Below, in pieces: positions 19,212-42,692 of a stretch of 54,473 bases of DNA. The stretch is from Elusimicrobiota bacterium (GTDB lineage: Bacteria; Elusimicrobiota; Elusimicrobia; UBA1565; UBA9628). A program made the position numbers and the translations under genes. Every line of letters begins with the position of its first letter. The stretch's first letter is position 1. Location of the stretch: positions 1 through 54,473 of the forward strand of contig JBBTJN010000007.1 in NCBI GenBank assembly GCA_038059415.1. Direction: 5' to 3'. The notes beneath the pieces were generated by a model. The model was not told where the DNA came from. It searched no databases and saw only the letters and a program-made list of their open reading frames with translations.

Positions 19212-19214
19212 GGT

Positions 19215-25685: not shown

Positions 25686-25734
25686 AGCTGCACCCAGTTT
25701 TACCCATCGGCAGCGCGACAAGTTCATAAAAGGG

Positions 25735-25831
25735 TCATGGATGCCTTTAGAATGACCTAGGAGCTCTTGTCCATAGTCCCTTGAAGTTTTGGTCGGCCAA
25801 ATACCCTATAAGTCGATATCGCTCGAAATAG
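25735..25831 (+). repeat. Island repeat copy 1 (~97 nt core; similarity extends about 22 nt further left)
   Basis: TCATGGATGCCTTTAGAATGACC..CCCTTGAAGTTTTGGTCGGCCAAATACCCTATAAGTCGATATCGCTCGAAATAG. Nearly identical to copy 4. Confidence 0.9.
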
Positions 25832-25847
25832 ACTACCTGTGCAGGTG

Positions 25848-25887
25848 TTCAGGTAGCTCTAGGCCACCTCGTATACTTAGACGAATG
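25848..25887 (+). promoter_or_regulatory. Candidate promoter TTCAGG-N16-CGTATA, with an ATG 8 nt after the TATACT box
   Basis: Read directly from the sequence. A 7-bp hairpin (25833-25839/25850-25856) overlaps the -35 position. Confidence 0.35.
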
Positions 25888-26232
25888 AGCGCTGGCCTGC
25901 ATCTGCGAGAAGTCCCGGGTCTCCAGTTGCCCGGGCAGCCGGTGGTGGGGGGATGACGGCGCGGCAAGGGCTGCGGATGGGCCGATACTGCCTGCGATGC
26001 GCCCGGGAGTCCCGTTCAGGGCTGAGCATAAGTCCTGTCGTAAGGTGCCCCTTTTCCTTTTACCGCGAACTGTTCGTGCAAGGTGGAGCCGATAGCCCCG
26101 AAACAGGCAGAGGATAAATGCCAAGCTGAGTAGTAGTCACTGGTCGTGGTACTATTTCTTTGCAGAGATTCTCATGGCTAACCCGGTACGGGAAAAGTTT
26201 GGGGGCTGGTACGCCGCTGAAGGAGAAAAGTC

Positions 26233-27165
26233 ATGCCGGGTGCCTACGCTCATATCACTCTAGCGAACCTTCTTAAAGAACCCGCACGGCTTGAGGCCAT
26301 TCCCGCCTTCCCAGTAGAGGCTATCTCCGCAGTTCTGGACTACTTTAAGTTCTGCGAGTTGGGAGCTGTAAGCCCAGACTACCCCTACCTGTCGGTAGGA
26401 GACAAGAAGGCCGAGGCCTGGGCCAACCTCATGCATTATACGCGTACCGGTGCGATGCTCCAGGTCGGAATTGGGAAACTGCGGGGTCTGCCCAAGGAAA
26501 CGATGCACAAAGGATTGGCCTGGTTGCTGGGCTACGCGGCTCACGTGGCAACCGATGTTTCAATCCACCCGGTCGTCAATCTCAAAGTTGGTCGCTACGA
26601 AGACAACAAGAGGATGCACCGAGTCTGTGAGCTGAACCAGGACGCCCATATCTTCCAACGGATGAAGCTCGGGGGCGTCGGTCTCTCCGAGCACCTGGAT
26701 TCAGGGATCGGTGGGTGCTGCAATCCTCGGAACAAGAAGCAGCTCGATACGGACATCGTTGATCTCTGGAAGAGCATTCTTAAAGAGGTCCACCCTGCCG
26801 AGTTTAAGAAGAACCCTCCGGATTTCAACAAGTGGCACAAACTCTTTAAGTTGATGGTCGATGATGTCGCGGAAGAGGGGAATAAGCTGATGCCCTTTGC
26901 CCGGCACCTGGGCGTCAACTGCGGGCTGACTTATCCAACGGCGGACGAGATTGACCGCCAATTCATCGACGGACTTGCTGTTCCCGGCGGTGCCCGCGAG
27001 GGATATGATTCGATCTTCGACCGGACGATTGGCAACGTCGGCGGAGTCTGGCAGCTTGTTGCGTCCGGGGTCCTGCAAGGCGATGAGAAGTATGTGGCCC
27101 GGCTCGGAACATGGAATCTTGATACGGGAAAGGACGAGAACGACCGAATGGTCTTCTGGAGCTGA
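26233..27165 (+). CDS. Zinc-dependent phospholipase C-like family protein (no signal peptide seen)
   Basis: His/Asp-rich blocks AYAHI, SPDYPY, LMHY, GYAAHVATDVSIHP and HRVCELNQDAH. GAAGGAG RBS. Confidence 0.55.
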   Translation: MPGAYAHITLANLLKEPARLEAIPAFPVEAISAVLDYFKFCELGAVSPDYPYLSVGDKKAEAWANLMHYTRTGAMLQVGIGKLRGLPKETMHKGLAWLLGYAAHVATDVSIHPVVNLKVGRYEDNKRMHRVCELNQDAHIFQRMKLGGVGLSEHLDSGIGGCCNPRNKKQLDTDIVDLWKSILKEVHPAEFKKNPPDFNKWHKLFKLMVDDVAEEGNKLMPFARHLGVNCGLTYPTADEIDRQFIDGLAVPGGAREGYDSIFDRTIGNVGGVWQLVASGVLQGDEKYVARLGTWNLDTGKDENDRMVFWS

Positions 27166-27167
27166 GA

Positions 27168-27644
27168 ATGCGAAGAACTACATTCACTGCGGGTGTCGGC
27201 CTAGTCGCCCTCATCTTTGTCGCTTCCTGCCATCGAAAGATTGCCCCAGTCCAGTCCCGCGCCGCCACGGCAGATCAGCCCAGCCTCGGTGCGCCCAACT
27301 CCGAAGAGGTCTTAATTCTTGGTTCGGCGCTCACCAAGCTTAGTGCCTCCGCCGAATCGGCCGTGCGGTATAAAAATCCTCCACCGAACCTGAGTGAGAA
27401 CGACCTGCTCGAGTTCGCTACCCAGCATGACCCATCTCTCCTGGAGCCGTTTTCCAAGTATCGGCTGAAAATTATGAGCCAGGGGGGGCACGCTGTTGTC
27501 CTGGTCTGCACCAAGGATGGGCGGGCGGCATTCCTTGAAGACGCTGGCTGTAGTGGGCCATTGGAGAAACGTGCGGCGGAGGGCTCCCCACTCCCGCCGT
27601 GTGAGTTCTCAGTGAACGTTCGTGAGGCGTGTGCACTCAAATGA
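27168..27644 (+). CDS. Lipoprotein, function unknown
   Basis: Lipobox in MRRTTFTAGVGLVALIFVASC. Confidence 0.6.
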   Translation: MRRTTFTAGVGLVALIFVASCHRKIAPVQSRAATADQPSLGAPNSEEVLILGSALTKLSASAESAVRYKNPPPNLSENDLLEFATQHDPSLLEPFSKYRLKIMSQGGHAVVLVCTKDGRAAFLEDAGCSGPLEKRAAEGSPLPPCEFSVNVREACALK

Positions 27645-28825
27645 GAGTTACAGGAATAATCGCCGCAGTAGTTAGCGTACTGTCCCTGCCCGTTTACGCC
27701 GCCACGCCCTCCGAGCCTTACAAAGTATTCTTCGGCAACCTCCACGCGCATAGCTCTTACTCGGACGGCTCCGGAACTCCCGCAGAGGCTTTTACCTTTG
27801 CTCGCGACACCGGCAAACTCGACTTCATGGCACTATCTGAACATAACCATGCGAGTGCCGAAATGGGAGCTAAGGAACGGCGGGACGGGCTGATGATCGC
27901 GACTCAGGAGGATCTCTACAACGGAGACGGCGAGAACTCCGTTACCTCGGCGGCTCGGCGGGCGACTGAGGACGGACGGTTCGTTGCCCTGGCGGGTCAA
28001 GAGTTCAGCGCAATCTCAAAAGGCAATCACATCAACGTCTTTGAGATCAAGCCGGTGATCAAGACGGAGAACGGTGCCTTCGATCAGCTATTTCGCTTCC
28101 TTGCTGCGACACCGGACAGCCTGGGAGAACCCGCGCTCGTAATGTTGAATCACCCTGGTGACTTCAAGGGCCCTGAAGAGTACGGTGAGGACGACTGCCC
28201 TGACCGGAAGACATGGATCGCGACGTTGAACAAGTACGCGGCGCTAATCGAGGTCCTAAGCGGTCCGGCCATGGCCAAGACCAAGAAGCGCCCAACCGGT
28301 AACGCCCAGCGCGACTATTTTCACTATCTGAGTCTCGGGCTCTACCTAGCACCAACCGCGTCCCAGGACAATCACTACAAAACCTGGGGCACGGCGACGG
28401 ACACGCGGACGGGCGTCTTAGCCAAGAGTCTGACCAAGGCCGACATCCTTAACGCTCTGAAGGCTCGGAGAGCCTACGCCACGCATGACAAGAACTTGCG
28501 CGTATGGTTCCGAGTAGGTGGCAACCTGATGGGAGATATCGTTAAGGCTGGGGCCGACTTGAAGGCGGTCAATGCCACGGTTACGATCGAGGACGGCGAT
28601 GAGCCCCAGGCCCACTACAAGATTGAGCTTCTTCGCGGTGTGGTCGGCGGCGGCGACGACACGGCTGTTGTGACTCAGCGAGAGCTTGTCGGCGACGGTA
28701 GCGTCCGGTTCGAGAACGTTCGCTATCGCGGAGGCAGGAGCTACTACCTCGTCAGGATCGCGCAGAGCAGTGGGCGCGGGCCGAAGGATATGACCTGGAC
28801 GGCCCCAGTCTGGATCGAGCCCTAG
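27641..28825 (+). CDS. Secreted PHP-domain (CehA/McbA-like) metallohydrolase
   Basis: Signal peptide, then FGNLHAHSSYSDGSG and ALSEHNH. ATGA overlap with the preceding gene. Confidence 0.7.
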   Translation: MRVTGIIAAVVSVLSLPVYAATPSEPYKVFFGNLHAHSSYSDGSGTPAEAFTFARDTGKLDFMALSEHNHASAEMGAKERRDGLMIATQEDLYNGDGENSVTSAARRATEDGRFVALAGQEFSAISKGNHINVFEIKPVIKTENGAFDQLFRFLAATPDSLGEPALVMLNHPGDFKGPEEYGEDDCPDRKTWIATLNKYAALIEVLSGPAMAKTKKRPTGNAQRDYFHYLSLGLYLAPTASQDNHYKTWGTATDTRTGVLAKSLTKADILNALKARRAYATHDKNLRVWFRVGGNLMGDIVKAGADLKAVNATVTIEDGDEPQAHYKIELLRGVVGGGDDTAVVTQRELVGDGSVRFENVRYRGGRSYYLVRIAQSSGRGPKDMTWTAPVWIEP

Positions 28826-29061
28826 GAGTTTCGGGAAATCGCAAAGAGGAACCTATGAAGAATTGTCCTTTCTGTGCTGAAGAGATCCAGGCCACTGCGA
28901 AAGGGTGGCAAGTTTGGTGTCAATCCGGATGGCAAGTCCCGTACCTGCGCTGACCGCCGGCTTGCGCATCCTCCACTTGCTGACGGCGAGTGAACTCTGA
29001 CACTTTGACAGTTTGTCAGAAGCCCCAACCCCCTCGCAACGCGACAAGCTCAATAAAAGGG

Positions 29062-29158
29062 TCATGGTTGCCCTTAAAATGACATTAGAGAAGAGCAAGG
29101 TAGACCCTTGAAGTTTTGGTCGGCCGAATACCCTATAAGTCAATATCGCTAGAAACAG
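29062..29158 (+). repeat. Island repeat copy 2
   Basis: TCATGGTTGCCCTTAAAATGAC..CCCTTGAAGTTTTGGTCGGCCGAATACCCTATAAGTCAATATCGCTAGAAACAG. Confidence 0.9.
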
Positions 29159-29198
29159 TGCAAGGATGCGTTCCTCCGGCGTCCGGCGTCTTAGGGCT

Positions 29199-29215
29199 CG
29201 TATAGATGTTTTGTG
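29199..29215 (+). promoter_or_regulatory. CTCGTATAGA box 7 nt upstream of the ligase GTG (candidate leaderless promoter)
   Basis: CGTATA at 29199-29204 and GTG at 29213. Confidence 0.35.
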
Positions 29216-30280
29216 GATCGCGCCCTCCTCGATCAGCTGGCCCCAATGTTGGCCACCGACCTGCGCGACCTTCCCAGTGCAGATCAAGACAGAGTATGGA
29301 ACACCCCGGACTTCGTGGCCGAAGAGAAGCTCAACGGTATTCGGGCGCTCCTTCATATAGGACAATCCGAGTCCCGACTGACTACCCGCGTCAGGAGCAA
29401 GCGTACGGGTCTCTACCTCGAGCGTAGCGACAACTTCCCGCACCTTCGGGATCTCCCGGTGAGCTTCCTCGAAGGCACCGTTTTGGACGGAGAGCTTCTG
29501 CTCGACAAGGCACGCCTCTTCACCGGCACGACTTGGGCTCATGGATCGTTATCGTGCACGATGGCGGTTTGCAGTAGCTCACCGGCGCGGGCTGTTGAGA
29601 TCCAAGGGCGAGAGGGGAAAGCCGACTACTGCGTCTTTGACATCATCCGGGATCGTGGCGCAGCGGTTGAGGGTTTCCCGCTGTCGGAGCGCCGCCGTCG
29701 GCTGGAAAGCGTATTCGTCGAGCTGCGCAAGCGGGGAATCTCCCTGGAATCGTTGAGGCTCGTGCCGCAGGTCCAGGAAAAAAAGCGGGCGTTCTACGCA
29801 CAGGTCCTTCGAGACGGCGGGGAGGGCGTGATGCTCAAGCACCGCGACGGTCTGTACCAGCACGCGGGCAGGTCTCCCCGCGTCTTGAAGGCAAAGCGGT
29901 CTCTAACGGTGGATGGGTTCATCATCGGCTCCACGGCTGGCAAGAACGGCAACGCGGGCTTGGTCGGGAGTTTGCGGATCGGGGTCTATGATGCCGATAC
30001 CGGAGAGATCCGCGAGATAGCCGGCGTTGCGCCCTATGACCTCAGCCGCGGGCCCAAGAAGAGTAATCTCCGCCGTGCGATGACGGTTCTGCTCAGTGGG
30101 GCGCCGGAGCTTGCGCCTGGGTTCCAGGGTCGTGTTGTGGAGATCGAAGCCTTCTGCTGGAACAAGAACGCTCGGCTCGTCCATGCCAAGCTGGCCCGGT
30201 TTCGGCCGGATAAGGACAAGGCCGATTGCCGCGTTGACTTCTCGTCGCTGGGGGTGGCGGATGCCGTGGACCCCGGGTGA
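29213..30280 (+). CDS. ATP-dependent DNA ligase
   Basis: Adenylation motif EEKLNGIR, N-terminal LAPMLAT, plus GEGVMLK and LKAK blocks. An alternative start is the Met of PMLAT at 29246. Confidence 0.85.
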   Translation: MDRALLDQLAPMLATDLRDLPSADQDRVWNTPDFVAEEKLNGIRALLHIGQSESRLTTRVRSKRTGLYLERSDNFPHLRDLPVSFLEGTVLDGELLLDKARLFTGTTWAHGSLSCTMAVCSSSPARAVEIQGREGKADYCVFDIIRDRGAAVEGFPLSERRRRLESVFVELRKRGISLESLRLVPQVQEKKRAFYAQVLRDGGEGVMLKHRDGLYQHAGRSPRVLKAKRSLTVDGFIIGSTAGKNGNAGLVGSLRIGVYDADTGEIREIAGVAPYDLSRGPKKSNLRRAMTVLLSGAPELAPGFQGRVVEIEAFCWNKNARLVHAKLARFRPDKDKADCRVDFSSLGVADAVDPG

Positions 30281-30458
30281 TAAGTGCGTCCTTAACGAGG
30301 CAGTATTCAGTCGGTTCGACAAAAGCTTCGGACCTATGGTCTGCCGCGATCCAGAGGTATATGTGGTTGCCCACATCGACCCGGTGCAGGCCGTCGTCAT
30401 CATCGTCGGCAAGAAGGGCCCCACGCCGGTCCTGGCGACCTGGATTCTTCCGATCTAG
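30261..30458 (+). CDS. Small hypothetical protein (65 aa) overlapping the ligase 3' end
   Basis: MPWTPGDKCVLNEAVFSRFDKSFGPMVCRDPEVYVVAHIDPVQAVVIIVGKKG has a protein-like composition. I recognise no homology. Confidence 0.35.
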   Translation: MPWTPGDKCVLNEAVFSRFDKSFGPMVCRDPEVYVVAHIDPVQAVVIIVGKKGPTPVLATWILPI

Positions 30459-30514
30459 GCCACGGCTGGAAGAATTTGGAATCGCCGGCTTCCGAGCGCA
30501 AGAGAATTAAATCA

Positions 30515-30610
30515 TCATGGATGCCTTTAAAATGACATTAGAGAAGACTTACTCGGTCCATTGAAGTTTGGTCGGCCGGAAACCCTATAAGTCAATCTCG
30601 CTTGAAATAG
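30515..30610 (+). repeat. Island repeat copy 3
   Basis: TCATGGATGCCTTTAAAATGAC..CCATTGAAGTTTGGTCGGCCGGAAACCCTATAAGTCAATCTCGCTTGAAATAG. Confidence 0.9.
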
Positions 30611-30627
30611 GGCTGGGAAGGCTCTCT

Positions 30628-30646
30628 CGTATATTGGGTGAGGATG
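30628..30646 (+). promoter_or_regulatory. TCTCGTATATTG box, with GTG 3 nt and ATG 9 nt downstream
   Basis: CGTATA at 30628-30633, lying 18 nt after repeat copy 3. Confidence 0.35.
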
Positions 30647-30880
30647 GAAGCGCGTCGAGGTCTCAGGGTGGCGTTCCACTGTTTCGACTGCCTCCAGGAA
30701 TCTTTAGTACCCGGAAGGAAATACAGGCGGACAGAGCCCGCGTGCCAAAGCTGCTATGGCGACCTCTTTCGAGGCACGCGGGATGATTTCATGCGCCTCG
30801 TCGCTAGCGTCGCCCGGAAGAACCTCGATAAGTCGGTTGGGACGATGATTCGCGTGCGCCTGCCCACATGTAGGAACTGA
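30638..30880 (+). CDS. Small zinc-ribbon-like protein (two CxxC pairs)
   Basis: HCFDC and CQSC pairs. The start is GTG 30638 or ATG 30644 (MEARR...). It lies directly upstream of the sigma factor gene. Confidence 0.45.
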   Translation: MRMEARRGLRVAFHCFDCLQESLVPGRKYRRTEPACQSCYGDLFRGTRDDFMRLVASVARKNLDKSVGTMIRVRLPTCRN

Positions 30881-30905
30881 CGGTCCTCATAGTTCCTCGG
30901 CTTTC

Positions 30906-30946
30906 TGAAGGTTCTGATTTGTCGCTTCGTATATCTGTATTCCATG
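30906..30946 (+). promoter_or_regulatory. Candidate ECF-type promoter of the sigma gene: TGAAGG-N16-CGTATA, with the ATG 9 nt after TATATC
   Basis: TGAAGG at 30906-30911, CGTATA at 30928-30933 and ATG at 30944. Confidence 0.45.
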
Positions 30947-31501
30947 GGCGACGGCAGTCAGCAGATCGGATTCATCGAACAGCTCATACTTCGAGAGACG
31001 CCGAGTGCCTATCGCGTGGCGATGAGCCTGACGCGGAACCCTGAGGCCTCAAAGGAGCTTGTTCAGGAAGCCTCCTACCGCATTCTCCTCAACCAGCGGG
31101 CCTTCAACGCATCCCGGTCCGGAACAGCCTGGTTTCAAGCTGTTGTCCGCAACCTGTTCATCGATGGGCGCCGGAGCTTCGAATATCGGCGCGGTGTCTC
31201 GTTGAGTCAGACGATCGTCGCTGATGGGCCCTGCTACAGCGAACTGCTGCCGAGCGATGAGCCTGGGGTGTTGGAGCAACTCGAGCGAGGGGAAGACAGC
31301 CGGGCTGTGCGTCGAATCACGAACAGGCTCCGTAAGGAGCATAAAGAAGTCCTCAAGCTCTGTGACATGCAGGCGTTGAGCTACGAAGAGGCGGCTGGGG
31401 TTCTGGCCGTTTCAGTCGGGACAGTTCGTTCAAGACTATTCCGTGCTAGACGGGCGTTCCGTTTACTCTGGGCCAAGGAGAATCTCGCGCATGGTGGATG
31501 A
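30944..31501 (+). CDS. ECF-type sigma-70 family RNA polymerase sigma factor
   Basis: Region 2 (ASKELVQEASYRILLN..AWFQAVVRNLFIDGRR) and region 4 HTH (LSYEEAAGVLAVSVGTVRSRLFRARRAF). Confidence 0.85.
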   Translation: MGDGSQQIGFIEQLILRETPSAYRVAMSLTRNPEASKELVQEASYRILLNQRAFNASRSGTAWFQAVVRNLFIDGRRSFEYRRGVSLSQTIVADGPCYSELLPSDEPGVLEQLERGEDSRAVRRITNRLRKEHKEVLKLCDMQALSYEEAAGVLAVSVGTVRSRLFRARRAFRLLWAKENLAHGG

Positions 31502-32468
31502 CTGCATTTTTAAGAATGGGTACCTGACGCCTACTGGCGTCAGGGTTTATTCATCGCTCGCTCATAATATTCCAGGCATCGACCTGGATTCGAGCAATGA
31601 CCAGATCTCGGATCTGATCTGTAAGTACGGAGAACGATCTAAGTCCTTGCTGTCTGAACACAGCGAGGATAGCCTGACCTTTACAACCTTTCATGCGCTG
31701 AGCAAGTTGCCAACGAAAGATTGGCTTGTTGATTTCTTCCGTGCGGCCTTCGGGCCCAAGATTGCCGCGGCTTATGCGCCCTACGTGAATGAAGCTGTCC
31801 TAAGATTTTGGCAACCCCATAGCAGCCCGAATCTGTATCTCGAGTACTTGGCCAAAAAGATTTCACGTGAGGGTGAGTCAGCGCTCAAGCACCTCGACGC
31901 AGGATCGCGCGTCAGGGCCAAGCAACGACTCCAAAAGCTCCTTTCCGGTGAGCTTGAGTGGGGCGAGCAACCGACTGAGGTTGATGTGCAGATCACTATC
32001 GGTAAAAAATTGATCATCTTTGTCGAGGTCAAGGTCTATTCCGACATCGGCAAGTTCGGGACCTTGAACGGGACGGATAACCGGAATCAAGTCATCCGTA
32101 ACCTCGAGGTGGTTTCGGAGGTCAAGCAGCGCCTCGGGTTCGAGGATGCCAAACTCGTGCTCCTGACTTTAGATCGCGCTTCGGACAAGCTGTACTCCCA
32201 ATCCATGCGGCGCTATCGAGGACCCGATTTGCGGAAGATGCGGATGTGGGATGAGGTCACGCCCGGCTGGGAGAGAATCCGAAAGGACCTGCCTCACCGA
32301 GCGGATGAGAGCCCGGAGTGGCACCAGCGTCTGAACACGTCGCTTGGCTGGGTAATCTGGCCGGAAATGGTCAAGATTCTTGTCGCAGGGTACAGCCGGC
32401 TATGGCGTAACGTGGCCCTCCAGATGGATGATCTTCCCGCATCAAATGATATTGCTGCCAGTCGATAG
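31491..32468 (+). CDS. Hypothetical protein with a PD-(D/E)xK-like motif
   Basis: TEVDVQITIGKKLIIFVEVKVYSD. The start overlaps the sigma stop by 11 nt. Confidence 0.45.
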   Translation: MVDDCIFKNGYLTPTGVRVYSSLAHNIPGIDLDSSNDQISDLICKYGERSKSLLSEHSEDSLTFTTFHALSKLPTKDWLVDFFRAAFGPKIAAAYAPYVNEAVLRFWQPHSSPNLYLEYLAKKISREGESALKHLDAGSRVRAKQRLQKLLSGELEWGEQPTEVDVQITIGKKLIIFVEVKVYSDIGKFGTLNGTDNRNQVIRNLEVVSEVKQRLGFEDAKLVLLTLDRASDKLYSQSMRRYRGPDLRKMRMWDEVTPGWERIRKDLPHRADESPEWHQRLNTSLGWVIWPEMVKILVAGYSRLWRNVALQMDDLPASNDIAASR

Positions 32469-32733: not shown

Positions 32734-32951
32734 AGCGCCGGGAGAAACGGGTTCAGGGGGCCGAGTGTCCGGCTTGCAACGGACAGGGGAAGGTCTGCTG
32801 CGTGACATGGGCCGTGGCAAGGGGGAACGCCGGCTCGGACCTGGAGTACAGCGGGATCGGACTACCGCTCTGGCCGCTCGGGTCCCATCTCGAGATGACA
32901 CGATGCCCGTTCTGCGGGAAGGGATTTACTCCTTCGGGAAGAAGAAGCTGA
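32730..32951 (+). CDS. Small zinc-ribbon protein (73 aa)
   Basis: CPACNGQG and CPFCGKG pairs. ATGA overlap with the preceding ORF. Confidence 0.45.
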   Translation: MKRREKRVQGAECPACNGQGKVCCVTWAVARGNAGSDLEYSGIGLPLWPLGSHLEMTRCPFCGKGFTPSGRRS

Positions 32952-33156
32952 GAGGCTTGCCGTATAACTTAGACATGCGCCGAAGCTCGATGATGTCCAG
33001 GCGACGCTCGCCCGACTCCATCTTTGAGACGAAGGATTGCGGCTTCCGCAGCTTGCTGGCCACCTCGACCTGGGTCAGCTTGGCCGCGACACGGGCTTCC
33101 CGCAGCTTTCTGACAATGTCCCGGTGCTCTGCCGTAAAAATAGTCTTTGATTTCAT
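32926..33156 (-). CDS. XRE-family HTH transcriptional regulator
   Basis: LREARVAAKLTQVEVASKLRKPQSFVSKMESGERRLDIIEL. An alternative ATG lies at 33162. Confidence 0.85.
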   Translation of the reverse strand: MKSKTIFTAEHRDIVRKLREARVAAKLTQVEVASKLRKPQSFVSKMESGERRLDIIELRRMSKLYGKPLSFFFPKE

Positions 33157-33157
33157 G

Positions 33158-33180
33158 CCCATCCCTTGACATGGGATGGG
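33158..33180. promoter_or_regulatory. Perfect 8-bp inverted repeat CCCATCCC-TTGACAT-GGGATGGG around a TTGACA -35-like hexamer; candidate XRE operator
   Basis: Read directly. It lies between the XRE start and the divergent lipoprotein gene. Confidence 0.5.
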
Positions 33181-33240
33181 TCAGCCTATATCCTTTTATC
33201 CAATATCCATAAACGGGATATTTCAAAGGAGTGCAGCGTA

Positions 33241-34293
33241 ATGAGCAGACTGAATGCGGACTTGAGGATTACGCTTGTCCTGATTGCAGCGCTCGTGACC
33301 GCCGCTTGTCGTGGCGGCAGTTTTCAACCACTGGGGATGTCTCTGCAAGGCTTCGAGAAGATTCTCCCAGACCCCTGCAAATTGGATTCCACGCGGAAAA
33401 TCAGCGACGGGGTTTTCAAGGACTACACGCTCCAGGCCTACAACTGTGGAGACGCTGGCCGTCAGGAGCTTGTCATTGATGGCTCCCGGGTTCTCAAGTA
33501 CGCCATCCTCATGGACGCTGCTATATTCAAGGATCCGCGGGTAATCGCAGCCCAGCGTGATCAGGTCTTGCGGCTCGGAATGTTTGGGTCGTTATATACG
33601 GTCGCCAAGAATGTCCCCAAAGGTAAGCTCCTTGACTTGTTGAAACAGAAGCCGCCCGAGGTCTTCGATATATTCGGGGAGAACTGGGAGAAGTGCATCC
33701 GGCTCAACGTCCCGATGACCTCGACATTGGAAGGCTACGCCTATTCGTGCGAGGTGGAGAATGGCGACACCGTTCGTTTCAGCGTCACTTCTGAGGGGGC
33801 GTACCTCAAGGAGAAATCGCTACGGATACACGGAGACCCGGCTGGGGGCGCATCGACCGGCGACTCCTCGGGGCCTGACGTTCTGCCGAAGATTACAGGC
33901 CCACGTGATTGCAGCAGGATCGATGTAGGCATGTCGATGAATGAGGTCGAGAGGGTGATGGGACAAAAGTCCGATGAACCGGCAGACATAGTCCTGATGT
34001 GGCGGGATCCTAATGGGCCTATGGGGATGGGCATGCCGATCCGGGGGTTTGGACTCGAGCGCAAGGAGTTCGTGGGGAATCTTGAGAAAGGGTTCACTTA
34101 CTGGTACGTCTCCCTCTCGTGCACGGTGGAGTTTAGCCCTCGCACCGCCAGGGTAAGTAGCGTTAATCGTCACTCCGTAGTTCCCTTGACTGCTAAACCC
34201 AAAGGATCTGAGTTCGGGGTGTACATGCTCGGTAGGGTGCCGGGCCTTCGGACCCCAGAGTGGGCGTCGGGACAGGGAGGAGATGCGCCATGA
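33241..34293 (+). CDS. Lipoprotein, function unknown
   Basis: Lipobox in MSRLNADLRITLVLIAALVTAAC. Confidence 0.6.
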   Translation: MSRLNADLRITLVLIAALVTAACRGGSFQPLGMSLQGFEKILPDPCKLDSTRKISDGVFKDYTLQAYNCGDAGRQELVIDGSRVLKYAILMDAAIFKDPRVIAAQRDQVLRLGMFGSLYTVAKNVPKGKLLDLLKQKPPEVFDIFGENWEKCIRLNVPMTSTLEGYAYSCEVENGDTVRFSVTSEGAYLKEKSLRIHGDPAGGASTGDSSGPDVLPKITGPRDCSRIDVGMSMNEVERVMGQKSDEPADIVLMWRDPNGPMGMGMPIRGFGLERKEFVGNLEKGFTYWYVSLSCTVEFSPRTARVSSVNRHSVVPLTAKPKGSEFGVYMLGRVPGLRTPEWASGQGGDAP

Positions 34294-35867
34294 GGCAAGT
34301 AAGTCGTGATTTCATCTTATGCTGTGTCCTGGCCTTGCTCCCGACAGGAGGATCGATGGCGGCGGGTGTCGCAGAGACACGGAACAGGAAACTCCAGAAT
34401 ATCCTTCACGCAGTCAGGGAAGAGAAGAACCCCAGCCTCCGCCGGGATGCTGTGGATGCCTTGGGCAAAATGGGGGCTATTGCTGTTCCCGGACTAACTG
34501 AAGTGCTCAAAGATAGCGATCCCAGAATTCGTTTTGCTGCAGCCGAGGCTTTAGAACGGCTGGGGCCAGTTGCAAGTGCGGCGGCCTCCATGTTAGTAGA
34601 AGTCAGCATCAATGATGGTAGCCGGGGGCTCTGCGGACCAGGTATTTTCCCATCCACCTGTTTTACCACAGCAGAACTCTTGAGCAAGATTGGCCCGTCT
34701 GCCAAGAAAGCAGTAGTCCCGTCACTGGTGGAAGCCTTAAAGAATGACAACGCAGGTGTTCGCTTTTGGGCCATATACTCGTTGGAGAAGATGGGCCCCA
34801 TAGCCAGGGAAGCGATTCCAGCGCTCGCAGAAGCGATTAAGGACAGTGATTCAAGTGTCCGCTTCCAAGCCGTAGGGGCTTTAGTCAAGGTTGGCCCTAA
34901 TTCACCCGAGACAGTTCCCGCATTGGTAGTGGCTCTCTCAGACAACTACATCGCCAACCGGAAGGCTGCAGTAGGCGCGTTGGCCGAGTTGGGTCCAGCT
35001 GGAAAGAATGCTGCCGCCGAATTAGTCGAAGCCTTAAAGGACGATGAACTCGCGGACGCGGCTGCCAAGGCTCTTGGCAAGATGGGTTCAGCTGCGAAGG
35101 AAGCTGTTCCTGCACTAATAGAACGATTCAAAGAAGACGGGCAATTCCGATCTAGGAGTAGTCTGGCTATTGAGATTCTAAGCAAGATAGGTTCTCCTGC
35201 TCTTCCAGCGCTGCTGGAAGCTCTGAAAGATCCTAATGCTTCTGTTCGTAGGTGCGCGGCGGAATCTTTGGGCGGAATAAGTCCGGCTACTAAGACGGCA
35301 GTCCAGGCTTTGGCCGTCGCCCTTAAGGATGACGATCCCAATATTCGCACGGCTGCGTCAATGGCGCTGGGTAAGATAGGTCCAACCGCAAAGGATGCCG
35401 TCCCACCATTGGTTGCGGCTCTCAAGGATCAAAATCGTGAAGTTCGTGTAGCCGCGGTAAGTGCTTTAGGTGATATTGGCCCAGAGGCAGCGGCAGCTGT
35501 CCCTTTCTTGGTGGAGGGCTTAAGTGCTAGCCATAGGTTGACACCCGCTCATTCATCGGCAGAAATGGCAGACGATTGGGGTAGCAACGCACGGGATGCT
35601 TTAGTAAAAATAGGACCCGCATCCGTATCGGCATTAGTGACCGCCATGAAAAGCACTAATGTGGAAATGCGCAATGGAGCCGCCAGCGCGCTGAACCTGA
35701 TGGGTGCATCTCGTGCAAAGGCAGCGGCTCCCGCATTGGCTGAGCTTTCCAAGACGGAGTGGAATCCGAAGGTAAAAGAATCGATGCTGGATGCACTCGA
35801 TCTGATAAGACGGGGTTGTGAACCTCCCGATTGGAATTGCCGAATAAGACGTGGAAGCCGACGTTGA
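34290..35867 (+). CDS. Secreted HEAT-repeat (PBS-lyase-type) protein
   Basis: Signal-like N-terminus and about 14 tandem units of the type A..ALG.(I/M)GP.A..AVP.L..ALKD.. .VR..A. ATGA overlap with the upstream gene. Confidence 0.8.
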   Translation: MRQVSRDFILCCVLALLPTGGSMAAGVAETRNRKLQNILHAVREEKNPSLRRDAVDALGKMGAIAVPGLTEVLKDSDPRIRFAAAEALERLGPVASAAASMLVEVSINDGSRGLCGPGIFPSTCFTTAELLSKIGPSAKKAVVPSLVEALKNDNAGVRFWAIYSLEKMGPIAREAIPALAEAIKDSDSSVRFQAVGALVKVGPNSPETVPALVVALSDNYIANRKAAVGALAELGPAGKNAAAELVEALKDDELADAAAKALGKMGSAAKEAVPALIERFKEDGQFRSRSSLAIEILSKIGSPALPALLEALKDPNASVRRCAAESLGGISPATKTAVQALAVALKDDDPNIRTAASMALGKIGPTAKDAVPPLVAALKDQNREVRVAAVSALGDIGPEAAAAVPFLVEGLSASHRLTPAHSSAEMADDWGSNARDALVKIGPASVSALVTAMKSTNVEMRNGAASALNLMGASRAKAAAPALAELSKTEWNPKVKESMLDALDLIRRGCEPPDWNCRIRRGSRR

Positions 35868-35898
35868 TGCTCGATTCTGCGGCAGCAGCTCGGTCCAT

Positions 35899-36792
35899 AT
35901 GAAGAAGCAGATGGTCGTTTTCGTGGCCATCACAGCTTCCATGATTGGGACGCCACAAGCTTACGGCTGGAGCCGTGTCGGCCATCAGACCGTTGCCCTC
36001 ATCGCGGAGCGCAGACTCAGCACGACCACCCTGAGCAAGGTCCACTCCATCCTAGGCCCTGGTATCAGCCTTGCGGATATCGCCGGTTGCGCCGACAACA
36101 TCAAACGCCATCCCGTTAACTGTGCCGGCAGTTTCCAGGTCGCCAGAGATCCGTCTAGCAAGCGTCAGCACTACATTAACGTCTCGGTCGCGGATTCTCC
36201 GAATTCCATGACCATCATGGGTTCCTGCCGCGTTCAGGGAAAGACTCAGGCGTGCAACATCGACCAGATCCAAGATGGCCTGGCGGTTCTGAAGGACCCG
36301 GCCGCCACACGCGCGCAGAAGCAGATAGCCCTCATGTTCATCGTCCACTTCGTCGGGGATCTCCACCAGCCGCTCCACAACGCCTCTGAGGTTGACGCCA
36401 GGGGTCGCGGTGATGGCGGTGGCAATGGCGCCAAGGTCTGGTTCATGCAGTCGGCCAAGGCCAAGACGCCAACCAATCTTCATCATGTATGGGACAATGT
36501 CATCGAAAGCGATGCGGCCCTTAAGCGCATGGGAGCCGGAACTCTTGCCGAGGAGCTCACAGCTGAGATTCAGAGTAAGGACGTGGCGGCCTGGCTAAAG
36601 GTGAGCGTCGCCGAGAGCGCTCTGGAGAGTTTCCTCATCGCGAAGACGCTGATTTATCCTGCTTATCACGCTCCCGATGGAAAGCGGCCCAGCCTCGACT
36701 ATCAGGCACGCATGCGGCCGGTTGCGAGGGAACAGGTGGCGAAGGCGGGTGTGAGACTTGCAGCGATGCTTGAGGAAGCCCTAAGCCCGTAG
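35899..36792 (+). CDS. Secreted S1/P1-family nuclease
   Basis: Signal peptide, then the mature N-terminus WSRVGHQ. HFVGDLHQPLH and NLHHVWD zinc-ligand blocks. Confidence 0.8.
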   Translation: MKKQMVVFVAITASMIGTPQAYGWSRVGHQTVALIAERRLSTTTLSKVHSILGPGISLADIAGCADNIKRHPVNCAGSFQVARDPSSKRQHYINVSVADSPNSMTIMGSCRVQGKTQACNIDQIQDGLAVLKDPAATRAQKQIALMFIVHFVGDLHQPLHNASEVDARGRGDGGGNGAKVWFMQSAKAKTPTNLHHVWDNVIESDAALKRMGAGTLAEELTAEIQSKDVAAWLKVSVAESALESFLIAKTLIYPAYHAPDGKRPSLDYQARMRPVAREQVAKAGVRLAAMLEEALSP

Positions 36793-36824
36793 GCCGCGCA
36801 CTTAGCGGCTTTCGCCAGCCGCTT

Positions 36825-36841
36825 CGTATATTGGTAGGGTG
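36825..36841 (+). promoter_or_regulatory. CTTCGTATATTG box 7 nt upstream of the GTG at 36839
   Basis: CGTATA at 36825-36830. Confidence 0.35.
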
Positions 36842-37408
36842 AGGCTCGGCTCTTCCGCCTTTATCGTGCAAATCCTGCGGGACCATCTCTTCGCAGGGGA
36901 GCGAGTGCTCCGCGAGCGAGCCGCGGAGTTCCTCAGTAAAACGCGATCCCGCGCGGTAGTCCGTAAGCTCGCACGAGCTCTCAGTTCTCCGCGGGACTAT
37001 GTTTCCACCCGAGCGGCCTGGGGGCTCACCCTCTGCAAGGATGACCTCGCCATAGACTTGCTCGAAAGGGCACTGAACGGCGGGAATGAGCGGATTCGTT
37101 CGCAGGCGTCATGGGCTCTCGGGCGGATAGAGAATCCCCGAGCTATGAAGGTGCTCGTATCCGCCTTGGAAAGCCCCAGACGAGCTGTGTACGCTCAAGC
37201 GGCTGCGGGACTTTGGCGAGCGGCGGTAAACGGATACCGAAGCGCGCAGGTGGAACGAACACTCATAGGTCTACTGAAGCGTGATAAAGGTCAAGTCGCG
37301 CTCACGCTGAGCCACATGCTCCGAAATCGGACGAGCCCGCCTCGAAAGAGACCTGCCACGGCGGTTCTAACCGCGTTCGAGCGGCATGGCGGCTCCTGGA
37401 TCCGGTAG
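36839..37408 (+). CDS. HEAT-repeat protein (short, no signal peptide seen)
   Basis: Repeats of the type R..A.WALG.I..P.A...L. GTG start. Confidence 0.6.
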   Translation: MRLGSSAFIVQILRDHLFAGERVLRERAAEFLSKTRSRAVVRKLARALSSPRDYVSTRAAWGLTLCKDDLAIDLLERALNGGNERIRSQASWALGRIENPRAMKVLVSALESPRRAVYAQAAAGLWRAAVNGYRSAQVERTLIGLLKRDKGQVALTLSHMLRNRTSPPRKRPATAVLTAFERHGGSWIR

Positions 37409-37409
37409 G

Positions 37410-37453
37410 CCATGAAGAATACCGGCTACGCGATTCCGTATAGAAATAGTGCA
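37410..37453 (+). repeat. Degenerate fifth copy of the 3' half of the island repeat, containing TGAAGA-N18-CGTATA
   Basis: CCATGAAGAATACC..CCGTATAGAAATAGTGCA versus copy 2 CCTTGAAG..GAATACC..CGCTAGAAACAGTGCA. The last 14 nt match at 13 of 14 positions. Confidence 0.5.
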
Positions 37454-37735
37454 CCTAAAACAACGCCGGAGATGTTTCCGGACGCAAGCATTAGGGGATC
37501 GACGTGGTGCACCGATCGCTTGCGAAGTGGCCCGGTGGAGGACCCATACCGCCAGATCACAACTCTCAGCGAGAGATCGTCGCTGCCAGGCCCCACGAGT
37601 GCCTGCGAGTCCGGGAGTATGGCCACTAACGAGCGGCAGGCGGCTCCCCGCGAAGAAACTCTCACGCATCGAAAGTACTCGACCCTGGTAGGTAGGGGTT
37701 AGTAGCTCGGTGCGCCCAACCGACAGATAGTAGTT

Positions 37736-39034: not shown

Positions 39035-39077
39035 GGCATACCTCTCGAGCGACTTACTGAATACAGCCGCACGCCTC

Positions 39078-39093
39078 CGTATACCAATTCATG
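39078..39093 (+). promoter_or_regulatory. CTCCGTATACC box 6 nt upstream of an ATG (39091); probable promoter of the Dam-like gene
   Basis: CGTATA at 39078-39083. The methyltransferase ATG at 39128 has its own GGAGGG RBS. Confidence 0.35.
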
Positions 39094-39127
39094 GAAGCAC
39101 GTCGTCAAAAGCTTCCTCGGAGGGTTT

Positions 39128-39700
39128 ATGGCTTGGGACATCGAACGATTTCGTGCTGCAACTGCGCCGTCCAGCACGTCGGAGTGGCTTACGCCGAAGC
39201 ACATCGTCGACGTTCTCGGCCCGTTCGACCTCGACCCCTGCTCGCCCGTCAACAGGCCTTGGCCCACGGCCTCACTGCACTACACCATCGAGGATGACGG
39301 CCTCTCCAAGTCCTGGCACGGCTTTACCTGGCTCAATCCGCCCTACGAGCGGGGTTCCCTGCCTCGCTGGATGGCCCGCTTCGCGGAGCACAATAACGGC
39401 ATCGCCCTGGTCAACGCCCGCACCGAGACCTCCTGGTTCGTGAAGTCAGTCTGGCCCAAGGCCCTCGCCCTCTTCTTCCCGGCCGGTCGCATTGTCTTCT
39501 GCCGCCCGGATGGCTCCAAGGCCCTCGCGGCTGGCTCGCCGTCCGTCTTCGTCGCCATGGGCTCACCCGCCCGTGACCGCCTCGCCCATGTCAAGTTGCC
39601 AGGCCAGTTCATCTCCGGGCCGTTCTCCCAGGAGCCCATCAAGCTCCCGACTCAGTCTGCCCCGGAAGTTATCAGCTCTCCGGCCAGTTTGACAGCATAG
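39128..39700 (+). CDS. Phage-type DNA N6-adenine methyltransferase (Dam-like, PF05869-like)
   Basis: SEWLTPKHIV..FDLDPC..WLNPPYERG. Confidence 0.75.
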   Translation: MAWDIERFRAATAPSSTSEWLTPKHIVDVLGPFDLDPCSPVNRPWPTASLHYTIEDDGLSKSWHGFTWLNPPYERGSLPRWMARFAEHNNGIALVNARTETSWFVKSVWPKALALFFPAGRIVFCRPDGSKALAAGSPSVFVAMGSPARDRLAHVKLPGQFISGPFSQEPIKLPTQSAPEVISSPASLTA

Positions 39701-39895: not shown

Positions 39896-39934
39896 TTCGA
39901 CGCCCGCTTGAGAAATCCTAGAATGTGTCCGATG
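39896..39934 (+). promoter_or_regulatory. Sigma-70-like promoter TTCGAC-N17-TAGAAT, with the ATG 8 nt after the -10 box (leaderless)
   Basis: TTCGAC at 39896-39901, TAGAAT at 39919-39924 and ATG at 39932. Confidence 0.45.
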
Positions 39935-40279: not shown

Positions 40280-40926
40280 CCTGGCAGGACGTCGCCCGCC
40301 AGATCAAGCGCCGGGAGCGGGACCACCAGAAGATCCTTATGGCCGTGCTCCGCGCTGATGGCGAGAGGATCTTTCCGATGGATCTGATTGCCATCGGGGT
40401 CATGAAGCGCTCCCGGATGCTGATTCAGGGATTCTTGGTCATGCTCCGCTCTGAGAACTACCTTTGCGCCGGACCTCTTTTGAGGATGCAACTGGATAAC
40501 ATCCTCCGGCTCTACGCGGCGAGCCTCTTTCCAAGCGGCAGTGATACGTTGAAGGCGTTCCTTCATGACATGCCGCTTTCAAAGTTGAAGTCTCCCGATG
40601 GGAAGCCCTTGACCGACAAGGAGCTCACAATTCGCGTCGGCAAGATATACCCTTGGCTGCCTCGGGTATACGAGACGACTTCCGGTTTCGTCCATTTCTC
40701 GCGATCGGCCATTATGAGCACGGTCGAAAGTTTGTCGGAAGAGGGTTCGCTCCGAGTGGTTGTGGGGCAGGGGGGCGGGCGCCGCTGGAAGCCTGAAGAG
40801 CGGCTCGCCGCCGCACAGGCATTCGATGAGGCGACCAAGGCGGTTCTTCAAATGGTCGCTTCTTGGGGTCACGTGAAGGCGGTGGAAGGCGCTAAACGGC
40901 CGCAAGAGGCCGCGGATGGCCGCTAA
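40276..40926 (+). CDS. Hypothetical helical protein, weakly AbiV/DUF5677-like
   Basis: ATGA overlap with the upstream gene. LLRMQLDNILRLYAASL-type helices. The family assignment is only an impression. Confidence 0.5.
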   Translation: MTWQDVARQIKRRERDHQKILMAVLRADGERIFPMDLIAIGVMKRSRMLIQGFLVMLRSENYLCAGPLLRMQLDNILRLYAASLFPSGSDTLKAFLHDMPLSKLKSPDGKPLTDKELTIRVGKIYPWLPRVYETTSGFVHFSRSAIMSTVESLSEEGSLRVVVGQGGGRRWKPEERLAAAQAFDEATKAVLQMVASWGHVKAVEGAKRPQEAADGR

Positions 40927-41773
40927 TCTGGTCGCGGAATTGGTGGCGCTCCACCAGTCGGTCAGGGCGGAAGAGCACCTATCGATGGTTCGTGAGCACA
41001 TCGTCCGCGACCCCGAGACAGGAAAAGCGCTTTGGGATTCATACATCCCTTTCGTCGGCCCGCACTATGAGCCGGGGGGAGTTCTGCTCGTCGGCACGGC
41101 GCAGAGTCTGGCGAAGACGGCCCGGAAGACTGACCCCAGCGATTGGCGCCTGGCGACGGGCACACCGGACCACCCGCTGTTTCGCCTATACCGCGTGGGG
41201 GACACCACTGTGCCGCGGCCTCTCGAGATTCGGGATGTCTCGTTCGAGAAGATCGCGATTCAGCCGTTCGAGGATGGCATCTTCGCGGGAATCGCGGGAA
41301 TTGCTCTCGCCGCGAAAGGCATGGGTGTTTATCGAGACCTTAATGATGTGACGTGCCGGATCGCGGTCACGAATTTCTTCAAACACTCACTTCATACGGA
41401 ATCTGGAGGCGACCTACGCCCCTGGGATCTGCCACGCGCAACCGCGCAGGTGTACGCCCGAGTGGTCTCGGAGCAATATATCCGCCGGGAGTTGGAAATC
41501 CTAAAGCCTGCCGTAGTCGTCGCTTTCAATAACGAGACCGCCCAAGAGATGCGCAGGTTGGGGCATCCCGCTGTTTATGGGATTAAGGACCCCGCGTGGC
41601 TTAAACGCGGTGGGAGCTTTCCGGGTAAGCCGGTGAGCTTGGACGAAGAAGCTCGTGAGTTGCACGCGATATATGTGTCCCAGATGCGCTCCATGTACAG
41701 TCAGCAGATGGCCGGCCGTGTGACCGGTTACTTGGCGTACTACCATGCGGAGCTGCTGAGGCCGCCGGCATGA
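40916..41773 (+). CDS. Hypothetical protein, possibly uracil-DNA-glycosylase-superfamily fold
   Basis: Blocks GVLLVGTAQS, AVTNFFKHSL and LKPAVVVAFNNETA are arranged like UDG family motifs but are diverged. 11-nt overlap with the upstream gene. Confidence 0.4.
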   Translation: MAANLVAELVALHQSVRAEEHLSMVREHIVRDPETGKALWDSYIPFVGPHYEPGGVLLVGTAQSLAKTARKTDPSDWRLATGTPDHPLFRLYRVGDTTVPRPLEIRDVSFEKIAIQPFEDGIFAGIAGIALAAKGMGVYRDLNDVTCRIAVTNFFKHSLHTESGGDLRPWDLPRATAQVYARVVSEQYIRRELEILKPAVVVAFNNETAQEMRRLGHPAVYGIKDPAWLKRGGSFPGKPVSLDEEARELHAIYVSQMRSMYSQQMAGRVTGYLAYYHAELLRPPA

Positions 41774-41786
41774 TCAAAGGCGACTG

Positions 41787-42434
41787 ATGCGCATATCGCT
41801 GATCGGAACAACCCACGCCGAGAGGGGCTTGGCGAACACGGGAGAGCTCCTGGCGATCCTGGAGCGCTGCAAGCCGGAGGTCATCTTCGCGGAGATTCCT
41901 GCCACCCATGCGGAGCGTTACGCAAACGCCTCTCATGCTACTCTCGAGTCCATCGCCGTTGCGCGATATCTTGCGAGCAATCAAGCGGAGGTTGTTCCCG
42001 TCGATCTCGCCGAGCCCGAGGAGAAGTTCTTCGACGATTCGAAAGAGATGTTCACGGCCGTCGAGCGGAGGAGTCCCAAGTACCGCAGCCTTGTAGATCG
42101 CAACACCGATGAGGTCCGGGCCGGGGGATTTCGTTATCTCAACAGCGACCAGTGCATGCAGGCGTGGGAAGACATCTATCGCGAGGTGCTGGAGACGATC
42201 GAATGGATCGGCGACCGGCGGCTGCGTGAGATTTACGACCTTTGGAGCCATGTCAATGAGAGCCGTGACCGAGAGATGATGCGGAATATTGCGCTCTACT
42301 CAGATCGCAACGCTGGGGCACGTGGAGTATTCCTTGTTGGTGCTGCACACCGGAAGTCCATCATCGACAAGGCTTCCGCGGGAAGCGAAACCGGATTGCC
42401 TCCAATCGAGTGGGACCTTGGCGGCTTTCTTTGA
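41787..42434 (+). CDS. TraB/GumN/PrgY-like family protein
   Basis: N-terminal ISLIGTTHAE..PEVIFAEIP and C-terminal SRDREMMRNI..VFLVGAAHRKSI resemble the TraB family signature. Confidence 0.45.
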   Translation: MRISLIGTTHAERGLANTGELLAILERCKPEVIFAEIPATHAERYANASHATLESIAVARYLASNQAEVVPVDLAEPEEKFFDDSKEMFTAVERRSPKYRSLVDRNTDEVRAGGFRYLNSDQCMQAWEDIYREVLETIEWIGDRRLREIYDLWSHVNESRDREMMRNIALYSDRNAGARGVFLVGAAHRKSIIDKASAGSETGLPPIEWDLGGFL

Positions 42435-42595
42435 TAGGCAATAGGCCGACCACATCATGACGGAGAAGTGCTAACCAAGGGGTACCGTCAAAAAGGTATA
42501 GCTACAGCGAATCCTGCGTGGGCTCAATCGTGCTTCGTTCCCGCCCCGTAAAGTATTTCCAGTCCCGATGGTGCCGGGAAAGTTTAATGGATTAG

Positions 42596-42692
42596 CTCTG
42601 GATGGCTTTAGATTGACCTAGGAGCTCTTGTCCATAGTCCCTTGAAGTTTTGGTCGGCCGGATACGCTATAGGTCAATCTCGCTAGGAATAG
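42596..42692 (+). repeat. Island repeat copy 4
   Basis: CTCTGGATGGCTTTAGATTGACCTAGGAGCTCTTGTCCATAGTCCCTTGAAGTTTTGGTCGGCCGGATACGCTATAGGTCAATCTCGCTAGGAATAG. Confidence 0.9.

Follow-up and report, generated by a model that had tools for sequence, protein, structure and literature searches.

The 23-bp promoters of phage T7 and the gp28 and gp34 promoters of phage SPO1 are reiterated sequences that serve phage-encoded polymerase or sigma factors, while the KorA and KorB operators of IncP plasmids and the repeats of IncW plasmids are 12-13-bp palindromes, reiterated at the backbone modules and bound by known repressors. The stoperators of Cluster A mycobacteriophages are asymmetric, co-oriented intergenic sites along a mobile genome, and Cluster K mycobacteriophages carry start-associated sequences (SAS) and extended SAS (ESAS), short motifs located a few nucleotides before many start codons, of which SAS are thought to act in translation. 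We describe here a family of non-coding direct repeats of about 120 nt on an integrative element of a groundwater Elusimicrobiota bacterium (Hainich groundwater metagenome; assembly GCA_038059415.1, contig JBBTJN010000007.1 of 65 kb, positions 1 to 54,473 of the forward strand; this whole stretch of 54,473 nt is called the window). The family is specific to the element, and occurs only in related integrative elements that encode the same clade of extracytoplasmic function (ECF) sigma factor. Judged from sequence comparison, it is somewhat probable that the copies represent a composite ECF-type promoter and operator cassette, which began at the sigma operon of the element and was copied before other modules.

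Similar to T7 and SPO1, the element combines a transcription specificity factor of its own with co-oriented, promoter-like copies before its modules; unlike these phages it is integrative and has no recognisable virion genes, and its copies are longer, 70-85% alike and present with two centre variants. With the IncP and IncW operators it shares the repetition of one regulatory sequence in the promoter regions of modules, although the unit here is long and asymmetric. The repeats resemble stoperators in their placement and the CGTATA boxes found before many genes of the element resemble SAS, but the sequences and the host phylum differ, and the CGTATA geometry fits the -10 element of leaderless mRNAs. 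Integron attC sites are likewise repeats in direct orientation that flank gene cassettes; these are, however, hairpin-folding imperfect palindromes at the 3' end of a cassette, whereas the present copies lie upstream of genes and have neither dyad nor fold, and no integron integrase is present.

The closest counterpart is found among autoregulated ECF promoters. Sigma-W promoters of Bacillus subtilis display a TGAAAC -35 element and a CGTA -10 element at N16, with a T-tract near the -35 element in some targets, and a T-tract just after the -35 element is a described feature of ECF promoters that stimulates some ECF holoenzymes (PMC5758882). The locus likewise displays a (T)GAA(G/A) -35 element, a CGTA-containing -10 element at N16-17 and, in the repeat core, a T-tract after the -35 element, and, as in ECF autoregulation, one copy is located directly upstream of the sigma operon while the same motif recurs before other genes. 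It differs from sigma-W promoters in that the unit measures about 120 nt instead of about 30 nt, the -10 element of the repeat has no CG and the 'spacer' is near-invariant, and in that the sigma factor is encoded on a mobile element, has no recognisable anti-sigma factor, and is here only predicted to be required. The cassette is most likely an example of this known type of regulation rather than a new class of repeat.

Repeat copies, anatomy and distribution

A family hidden Markov model (HMM) was built from the four copies of the window, and nhmmer returned exactly four matches in the window with E-values of 1e-34 to 1e-37; a search at E<=10 with filters off added none. All four are located on the plus strand. 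Copy c1 (25723..25843; E 2e-37), with an R-type centre, is located upstream of a trio of genes, classed by Pfam and NCBIfam, for a phospholipase C (PLC)-like protein, a 158-aa protein and a CehA/McbA-like PHP hydrolase. Copy c2 (29050..29171; E 1.5e-35), with an S-type centre, lies directly upstream of the ligase gene's own CGTATA promoter-like site, and c3 (30504..30621; E 4e-34), also S-type, precedes a zinc-ribbon open reading frame (ORF) and the sigma operon. Copy c4 (42584..42704; E 1.3e-35) has an R-type centre and a diverged block A, and stands ahead of DUF2958 and the replication genes. From c1 to c4, the distances to the following long ORF are 389, 41, 22 and 314 nt. The four direct, same-strand copies reported in the preliminary description were thus recovered by both a repeat finder and nhmmer, at slightly greater length; as stated there, all are intergenic and have the orientation of the next plus-strand gene.

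A fifth, degenerate half-copy had been proposed at 37410-37453. This stretch is not a member of the family: it gives no HMM match even at E<=10 with filters off and does not align. It contains a promoter-like site, TGAAG-N19-CGTATA (37413..37442, plus strand), and a conserved small ORF (37449-37691) starts with GTG 6 nt further on; this bipartite motif is all that the site and the repeat have in common. Therefore no copy directly precedes the polymerase gene. The ligase gene does not form a single-gene cassette either, since a 65-codon ORF (30261-30458), also called in relatives, is located between c2 and c3. Partition of the whole island into cassettes was an overstatement: the copies are confined to the right-hand 17 kb, the supposed half-copy does not belong to the family, and the majority of right-hand transcription units begin with the shorter CGTATA motif instead.

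An alignment of 14 distinct copies from the window and its relatives defines the order of parts: an A-rich stretch; block A (TCATGGATGCCTTTARAATGAC), a conserved 22-nt stretch at about -63 to -85; a 22-nt centre; the near-invariant CCYTTGAAGTTTTGGTCGGCC; 7-8 variable nucleotides; TATARGTCAAT; and CGCT-N-GAAAYAG. The invariant core reads TTGAAG-TTTT-GGTCGGCC and is followed by SSTATA, 17-18 nt after TGAAG; the conserved block downstream of it is GTCAAT-N2-CGCT-N-GAAAYAG. In c1, block A occupies 25735-25756, the core 25781-25798 and the -10-like CCTATA 25805-25810. Both conserved blocks of the preliminary description are present, the second (GGTCGGCCNNANACNCTATANGTC) with four matches against 0.00 expected and the first with three matches at no more than three mismatches, again against 0.00 expected, that of c4 being more diverged. 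The centre variants are also as described: c1 and c4 are identical (22/22), while c2 and c3 share 14 of 22 positions. Each version is conserved between elements, the S centre (TTAGAGAAGA...) with 21/22 identities between c3 and the copy of the related locus L010, and the R centre (CTAGGAGCTC...) with 20/22 between c1/c4 and L008. Thirteen of the 14 distinct copies precede the next gene and share its orientation; downstream of the copies the genes are conserved, whereas those upstream vary.

No copy was found in the 19 kb of host flank, and the family is not the genome-wide dispersed repeat that had been considered as an alternative. When one genome from each of 185,579 GTDB species was searched, the family was found on a single 13-kb contig of an Elusimicrobia metagenome-assembled genome (MAG), which represents a related element with two copies. 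IMG/VR (searched by DNA and with the 325-aa protein described below), GenBank phages and PLSDB plasmids yielded no copies, and a metagenome scan provided at least one true extra copy (L127), the other matches being mostly chance 17-mers.

Related loci were obtained as contigs carrying relatives of the element's sigma factor. At least one copy is present in all nine loci whose sigma factor shows at least 55% identity, while three loci with 42-44% sigma relatives have no copy and no proximal CGTATA promoter. Two positions are conserved across elements: an S-type copy before the zinc-ribbon ORF and sigma operon, found in 8/9 related loci (orthologues of c3 in L010, L009, L142, L138, L127, L166 and L007), and an R-type copy before the DUF2958/MCM replication module (c4 of the window, L153 and L008). 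Copies c1 and c2 are peculiar to the lineage of the window, and in relatives the ligase gene has no copy in front. The S-type copy of the window is 90, 80, 79 and 80% identical to those of L010, L142, L138 and L009, compared with 65, 67, 59 and 63% for the sigma coding sequence, and the best-conserved neighbour, the gene of the 325-aa protein, shows about 72-75% DNA identity (75-82% at the protein level). The copy being better conserved than the DNA of both genes, this comparison indicates that purifying selection acts at the DNA level on the entire unit, with its centre.

Promoter-like sites in the repeats and before the genes

The operon downstream of c3 is comprised, on the plus strand, of a 78-aa zinc-ribbon-like ORF (CxxC...CxxC; 30644..30880), which is the first gene after the copy, of an ECF-type sigma-70 family factor (30944..31501; Pfam Sigma70_r2/r4_2; TIGR02937 with 67.5 bits, cutoff 42.9), and of the 325-aa protein (31491..32468), whose gene overlaps the end of the sigma gene and is predicted to be co-transcribed with it. 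A promoter-like site, TGAAGG-N16-CGTATA (30906..30933, plus strand), ends 10 nt before the sigma start codon. Compared among nine elements, this site (TCTGAAGG-N16-CGTATA) has a conserved -35 element (CTGAAGG/CTGACGG) and -10 element and a variable spacer, the signature of a genuine promoter, and such a proximal CGTATA site precedes sigma or RadC-sigma in 9/9 loci.

The repeat core displays the same bipartite layout, with a T-tract directly after the -35 element. The motif TGAAG-N16-19-SSTATA occurs six times in the 54 kb, against 0.13 expected, always on the plus strand and inside the element: in the four repeat cores, at the sigma-proximal site and at the 37413-37442 site. The T-tract of c3 is one T short, so that its spacing equals that of the sigma promoter. 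In S-type copies, a spacing of exactly N16 separates the 3' block GAAAYAGG from a downstream CGTATA box abutting the zinc-ribbon ORF (30628..30633, plus strand, directly after c3 and 10 nt before the ATG), a box that in relatives is part of the S-type unit. The ancestral unit would therefore hold two tandem promoter-like sites, and since L008 has that box without the repeat, the two parts are separable. With a motif common to the repeat and the sigma promoter, the upstream and co-oriented position of the copies, and their co-occurrence with one sigma clade, the promoter or operator role is the best supported of the three roles that the preliminary description had suggested (the other two being an RNA element and recombination boundaries).

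Between 25.7 and 51.2 kb, CGTATA occurs 12 times on the plus strand versus three times on the minus strand, and eight sites are located 5-12 nt before a start codon; the random mean is 0.11, and none of 20000 trials reached eight. Plus-strand sites placed 6-10 nt ahead of a start codon begin at 25870, 29199, 30628, 30928, 36825, 37437, 39078 and 43005, and the genes that follow include the ligase, the zinc-ribbon ORF, the sigma factor, a 189-aa HEAT protein, the conserved small ORF and DUF2958. The box at 25870..25875 comes after c1 and 10 nt before a 24-codon ORF (25886-25960), those at 29199..29204 and 36825..36830 precede the GTG of the ligase gene (29213) and that of the 189-aa HEAT-repeat gene, each by 8 nt, and that at 43005..43010 lies 8 nt before the DUF2958 ATG (43019). 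In the region 39078-39130, the ATG that comes after the box (39091) is in a different frame from the Dam-like gene as annotated (39128). It could belong to a small overlapping ORF; alternatively, the methylase start may be wrongly assigned.

Across the relatives, 37 such sites yield the consensus tCtGAAGG-N16-CGTATAnn, followed after 4-8 nt by ATG or GTG. This class has an ECF layout, with bipartite -35 and -10 elements, N16 spacing and CGT in the -10 element. Only 14/37 sites have T at position -7 of CGTATAnn, whereas this T is conserved in sigma-70 promoters. A housekeeping sigma-70 promoter (TTGACA-N16-18-TATAAT) was rejected for the repeats: the consensus scan flagged no copy, and TTGAAG and TATAAG are 19-20 nt apart. 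A sigma-54 (-24/-12) reading of the core was rejected by eye.

The geometry of the CGTATA class places the transcription start at or beside the start codon, which implies that it drives predicted leaderless mRNAs throughout the element and its relatives. Host-type promoters look different: TAGAAT or TATCCT -10 elements are used by the TTGACA promoter of the element at 33166 and by leaderless host genes, a comparison based on a handful of sites. We therefore predict that the element-encoded sigma factor recognises the CGTATA class. In the flank, two minus-strand host genes (ends at 52997 and 54397) show TAGAAT at a distance of exactly 6 nt from the start (52998-53020 and 54398-54420) and no Shine-Dalgarno sequence, which suggests that leaderless mRNAs may be common in this Elusimicrobiota host.

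Two intergenic stretches downstream of copies are of note. A 389-nt leader (25844-26232) separates c1 from the PLC-like gene, which does have a Shine-Dalgarno sequence; it has no match in Rfam. Between c4 and DUF2958, an AT-rich non-coding stretch (42860-42990) contains GAGGTAG twice and GTTAAT twice, is 76% conserved with L008 (17246-17338), and could function as an origin of replication or as an additional control region. Similar words (GGTAGGT...GTTAGTAG) are present before the polymerase gene (37687-37705).

The proposed mechanism can be described as follows. The core would act as an ECF-type promoter-like unit, comprised of the -35 element TTGAAG, the T-tract, GGTCGGCC and the -10-like SSTATA, while block A and the two-version 22-nt centre may serve as operator or activator sites. 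The ancestral copy would control the operon of the zinc-ribbon ORF, the sigma factor and the 325-aa protein, with the second CGTATA promoter abutting the start codon at a fixed distance, and the second type of copy would control the replication module. In the lineage of the window, further copies would have been placed before the ligase and the PLC/PHP trio. Read by the ECF sigma factor of the element, the repeat promoters may switch on several modules together, mostly as leaderless mRNAs, and the long conserved copies may double as homology patches for the joining or exchange of modules. The comparison establishes that the copies exist, are conserved and element-specific, and share a motif, position and orientation; their promoter activity, sigma dependence and operator function are predicted.

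Several observations weigh against this interpretation. The 'spacer' GGTCGGCC of the repeat is near-invariant while its -10-like hexamer varies (CCTATA, GCTATA, GGTATA, GGTGTA, CCTTTA) and in no case contains the CG found in CGTATA. The sigma-proximal site shows the reverse pattern, and this suggests that the repeat is a protein-binding site instead of, or besides, a simple promoter. The spacing (N17-18) is one nucleotide longer than that of the sigma promoter in three of the four window copies, c3 being the exception. No start codon is found at leaderless distance after the repeat's own -10 element, c1 and c4 are 300-390 nt away from the next long gene, and neither block A nor the centre could be linked to a candidate binding protein.

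Rival functions and module junctions

An array of repressor or roadblock sites, in which the asymmetric invariant 18-mer TTGAAGTTTTGGTCGGCC and/or block A and the centre bind an element-encoded regulator that silences or insulates the modules, would account directly for a nominal spacer that is more conserved than the nominal -10 element, and for two conserved centre versions, which suggest distinct protein sites. The promoter resemblance would then be secondary, and the asymmetric, intergenic copies, co-oriented with transcription, could be likened to Cluster A stoperators or to the KorA/KorB operators of IncP. We consider this unlikely. Agreement between the TGAAG...SSTATA layout and the sigma promoter is far greater than chance would give, and no binding protein was identified. 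The only recognisable repressor is an XRE/HTH_3 regulator (32926..33162, minus strand) with a divergent TTGACA-type promoter and a palindromic operator at 33159-33181. In this divergent region (33159-33200), TTGACA is located inside the palindrome CCCATCCC-TTGACA-TGGGATGGG, whose half-sites change in step in relatives (CCTATCCC/GGGATAGG and CCTCTCCC/GGGGAGTAGG; L009 11955-12000 and L138 5368-5410), as would be expected of a repressor operator. This covarying palindrome is absent from the copies, and binding of the XRE repressor at the repeats was rejected.

An RNA function was also among the roles first suggested. For a structured RNA it does not hold: RNAalifold gave -2.6 kcal/mol with a 5-pair stem and essentially no covariation, 12 copies folded singly adopted differing structures with z-scores of -0.9 to +0.9, and Rfam showed no match to the copies at gathering thresholds or at E<=1. 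The spacer that follows GAAAYAG was also considered for a small conserved hairpin, which was rejected because L138 and L166 do not keep it. What is left is a signal in the primary sequence, in which GTCAAT-N2-CGCT-N-GAAAYAG, transcribed from the repeat or from upstream, would be an antitermination element like ops or boxA, or a stability element. The downstream block is conserved even in copies without a following CGTATA box, c1 and c4 precede long leaders, and CGCTNGAAA bears what we take to be a loose resemblance to boxA. Set against these points, the block shares the lack of conserved fold, covariation and Rfam matches, and no NusG-, RfaH-, N- or Q-like factor was recognised among the element proteins, so that we regard such a leader signal as very improbable.

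Other classes of repeat were excluded in line with the preliminary description. The copies contain no inverted repeats, no internal dyad and no stable fold, and they are not attC-like. Without terminal inverted repeats and without copies in the flanks, they are neither a miniature inverted-repeat transposable element nor a dispersed host repeat such as repetitive extragenic palindromic (REP) or enterobacterial repetitive intergenic consensus (ERIC) sequences. Spaced by 3327, 1452 and 12082 nt with genes in between, they are not clustered regularly interspaced short palindromic repeats (CRISPR). A protein-coding origin was rejected given stops in all plus-strand frames, a 1-nt indel between copies and substitutions without third-position bias, as was a secondary attachment (att) site, since the best alignments to the att core and tRNA-Ser are 6-10 nt long and were matched or beaten by 127-273 of 300 shuffles.

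The third suggested role, that of recombination boundaries, is partly borne out, as a consequence of the copies rather than as their function. Homology between the window and L142 and L010 starts exactly at the 5' edge of the repeat, and the cargo further upstream (an AAA ATPase and a UvrD-like helicase) is unrelated. In relatives, homology to the ligase region begins at 29174-29199, and c2 ends 3 nt before it, abutting the conserved ligase promoter; c2 is also nearer to the copy of L142 (84%) than to c3 (80%). Copy c1 is a mosaic, c2-like in its 5' extension and block A (27/31) and in its 3' part (29/32), with the centre of c4 (22/22). The mosaic and the junction copies show that recombination among copies has happened. 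The coincidence with junctions is equally expected if promoters mark operon starts, and was therefore treated as a consequence and not as the primary function; the copies mark module junctions and probably help to create them. In L009 (4405-4547), a relic copy with the truncated start of a zinc-ribbon ORF is located between two minus-strand defence systems (DISARM-like and Hachiman-like), for both of which it faces the wrong way; it resembles a scar left by an earlier joining of modules.

That homology anchoring for module exchange is itself the selected function, which would make the repeats a recombinase-independent analogue of integron cassette boundaries, draws on these same junctions, on the mosaic and on the L009 relic. 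It leaves unexplained the position-specific conservation (invariant core, two centre alleles) and the fixed orientation; operon starts are natural insertion points anyway, most cargo variation is found upstream of the first copy, and the repeats have no similarity to att or tRNA sequences and no dyad for a site-specific recombinase. We hold it to be quite unlikely as a primary role. The reading as a promoter-operator cassette could be extended, in a speculative and rather doubtful step, to a portable 'regulatory adaptor' that is copied or imported together with captured cargo (the PLC/PHP trio, the ligase and the defence genes of relatives), wiring it to the regulon of the element's sigma factor while providing a homology patch for module swaps.

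The element, its cargo and its regulatory meaning

The integrative element spans about 16.1-51.2 kb (about 35 kb) and has a G+C content of 53-60% (about 56%), compared with 62-71% for the flanks (host about 64%). It is delimited by a 39-nt direct repeat, attL at 16067..16105 (plus strand) and a second copy at 51230-51268, and by a tyrosine integrase (50032-51087) that adjoins the intact tRNA (tRNA-Ser region 51230-51318). The repeat corresponds to the 5' half of tRNA-Ser(UGA), which places the crossover in the anticodon loop. In the host flanks there is a suf operon; its SufS shares 85-88% identity with proteins from Elusimicrobiota MAGs. The element was not found described in the literature searched.

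The left part of the element contains defence cargo, SIR2-HerA and two N6/N4 methyltransferases (17520-22357). In the right part the genes are nearly all on the plus strand, in the order: Zn-PLC-like protein, 158-aa protein, CehA/McbA-type PHP hydrolase, ATP-dependent ligase, small zinc-ribbon ORF, ECF sigma factor, 325-aa protein, the opposite-strand XRE regulator, HEAT-repeat proteins, S1/P1 nuclease, family-A polymerase, Dam-like methylase, DUF2958, MCM-like helicase, clamp-loader-like ATPase and DUF5131. The 325-aa protein is 75-82% identical across elements whose sigma factors are only about 60% identical. Searches of Pfam, NCBIfam, PHROG and PDB gave no match to it; a D165...E179-x-K181 motif (D...ExK), which is invariant, hints at a PD-(D/E)XK nuclease fold, the single-sequence AlphaFold model (pLDDT 36) and the PDB profile search being uninformative. 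No typical anti-sigma factor was recognised.

Left of the sigma module lies a hotspot of defence cargo, in the window and also in relatives (L007 1-9000, L008 1-8600 and L009 1-8260), which carry GmrSD/AIPR/Mrr, Z1-DUF4420-HATPase, and Hachiman with a DISARM-like SNF2/methylase. A Wadjet-like JetD/SMC set (L139 2258-9481) is located beside a 42% sigma relative, outside the sigma clade. The genes at 26233-28825 and 34260-37408 form an unusual set, comprised of the Zn-PLC/P1-nuclease-fold protein, the PHP hydrolase, the S1/P1 nuclease and several HEAT-repeat proteins with weak PADLOC HEAT matches, alongside the ligase, PolA and Dam, and could be an uncharacterised DNA-targeting or defence module.

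No concept is overturned by these results. They provide a concrete regulatory map for an integrative element of the Elusimicrobiota, a phylum with almost no experimental genetics, in which an element-encoded ECF sigma factor, a class of start-codon-abutting promoters predicted to yield leaderless mRNAs, and a long cassette before four modules are brought together. The sigma factor and its promoter would represent a new orthogonal ECF part, provided that the pair functions in a heterologous host. Should the regulatory adaptor be real, an uncultured phylum would have a counterpart of integron cassette capture that is promoter-first and needs no recombinase; the mosaic copies, together with the junctions at defence cargo, may in any case serve as a small model of how mobile elements tie new cargo to their own regulation.

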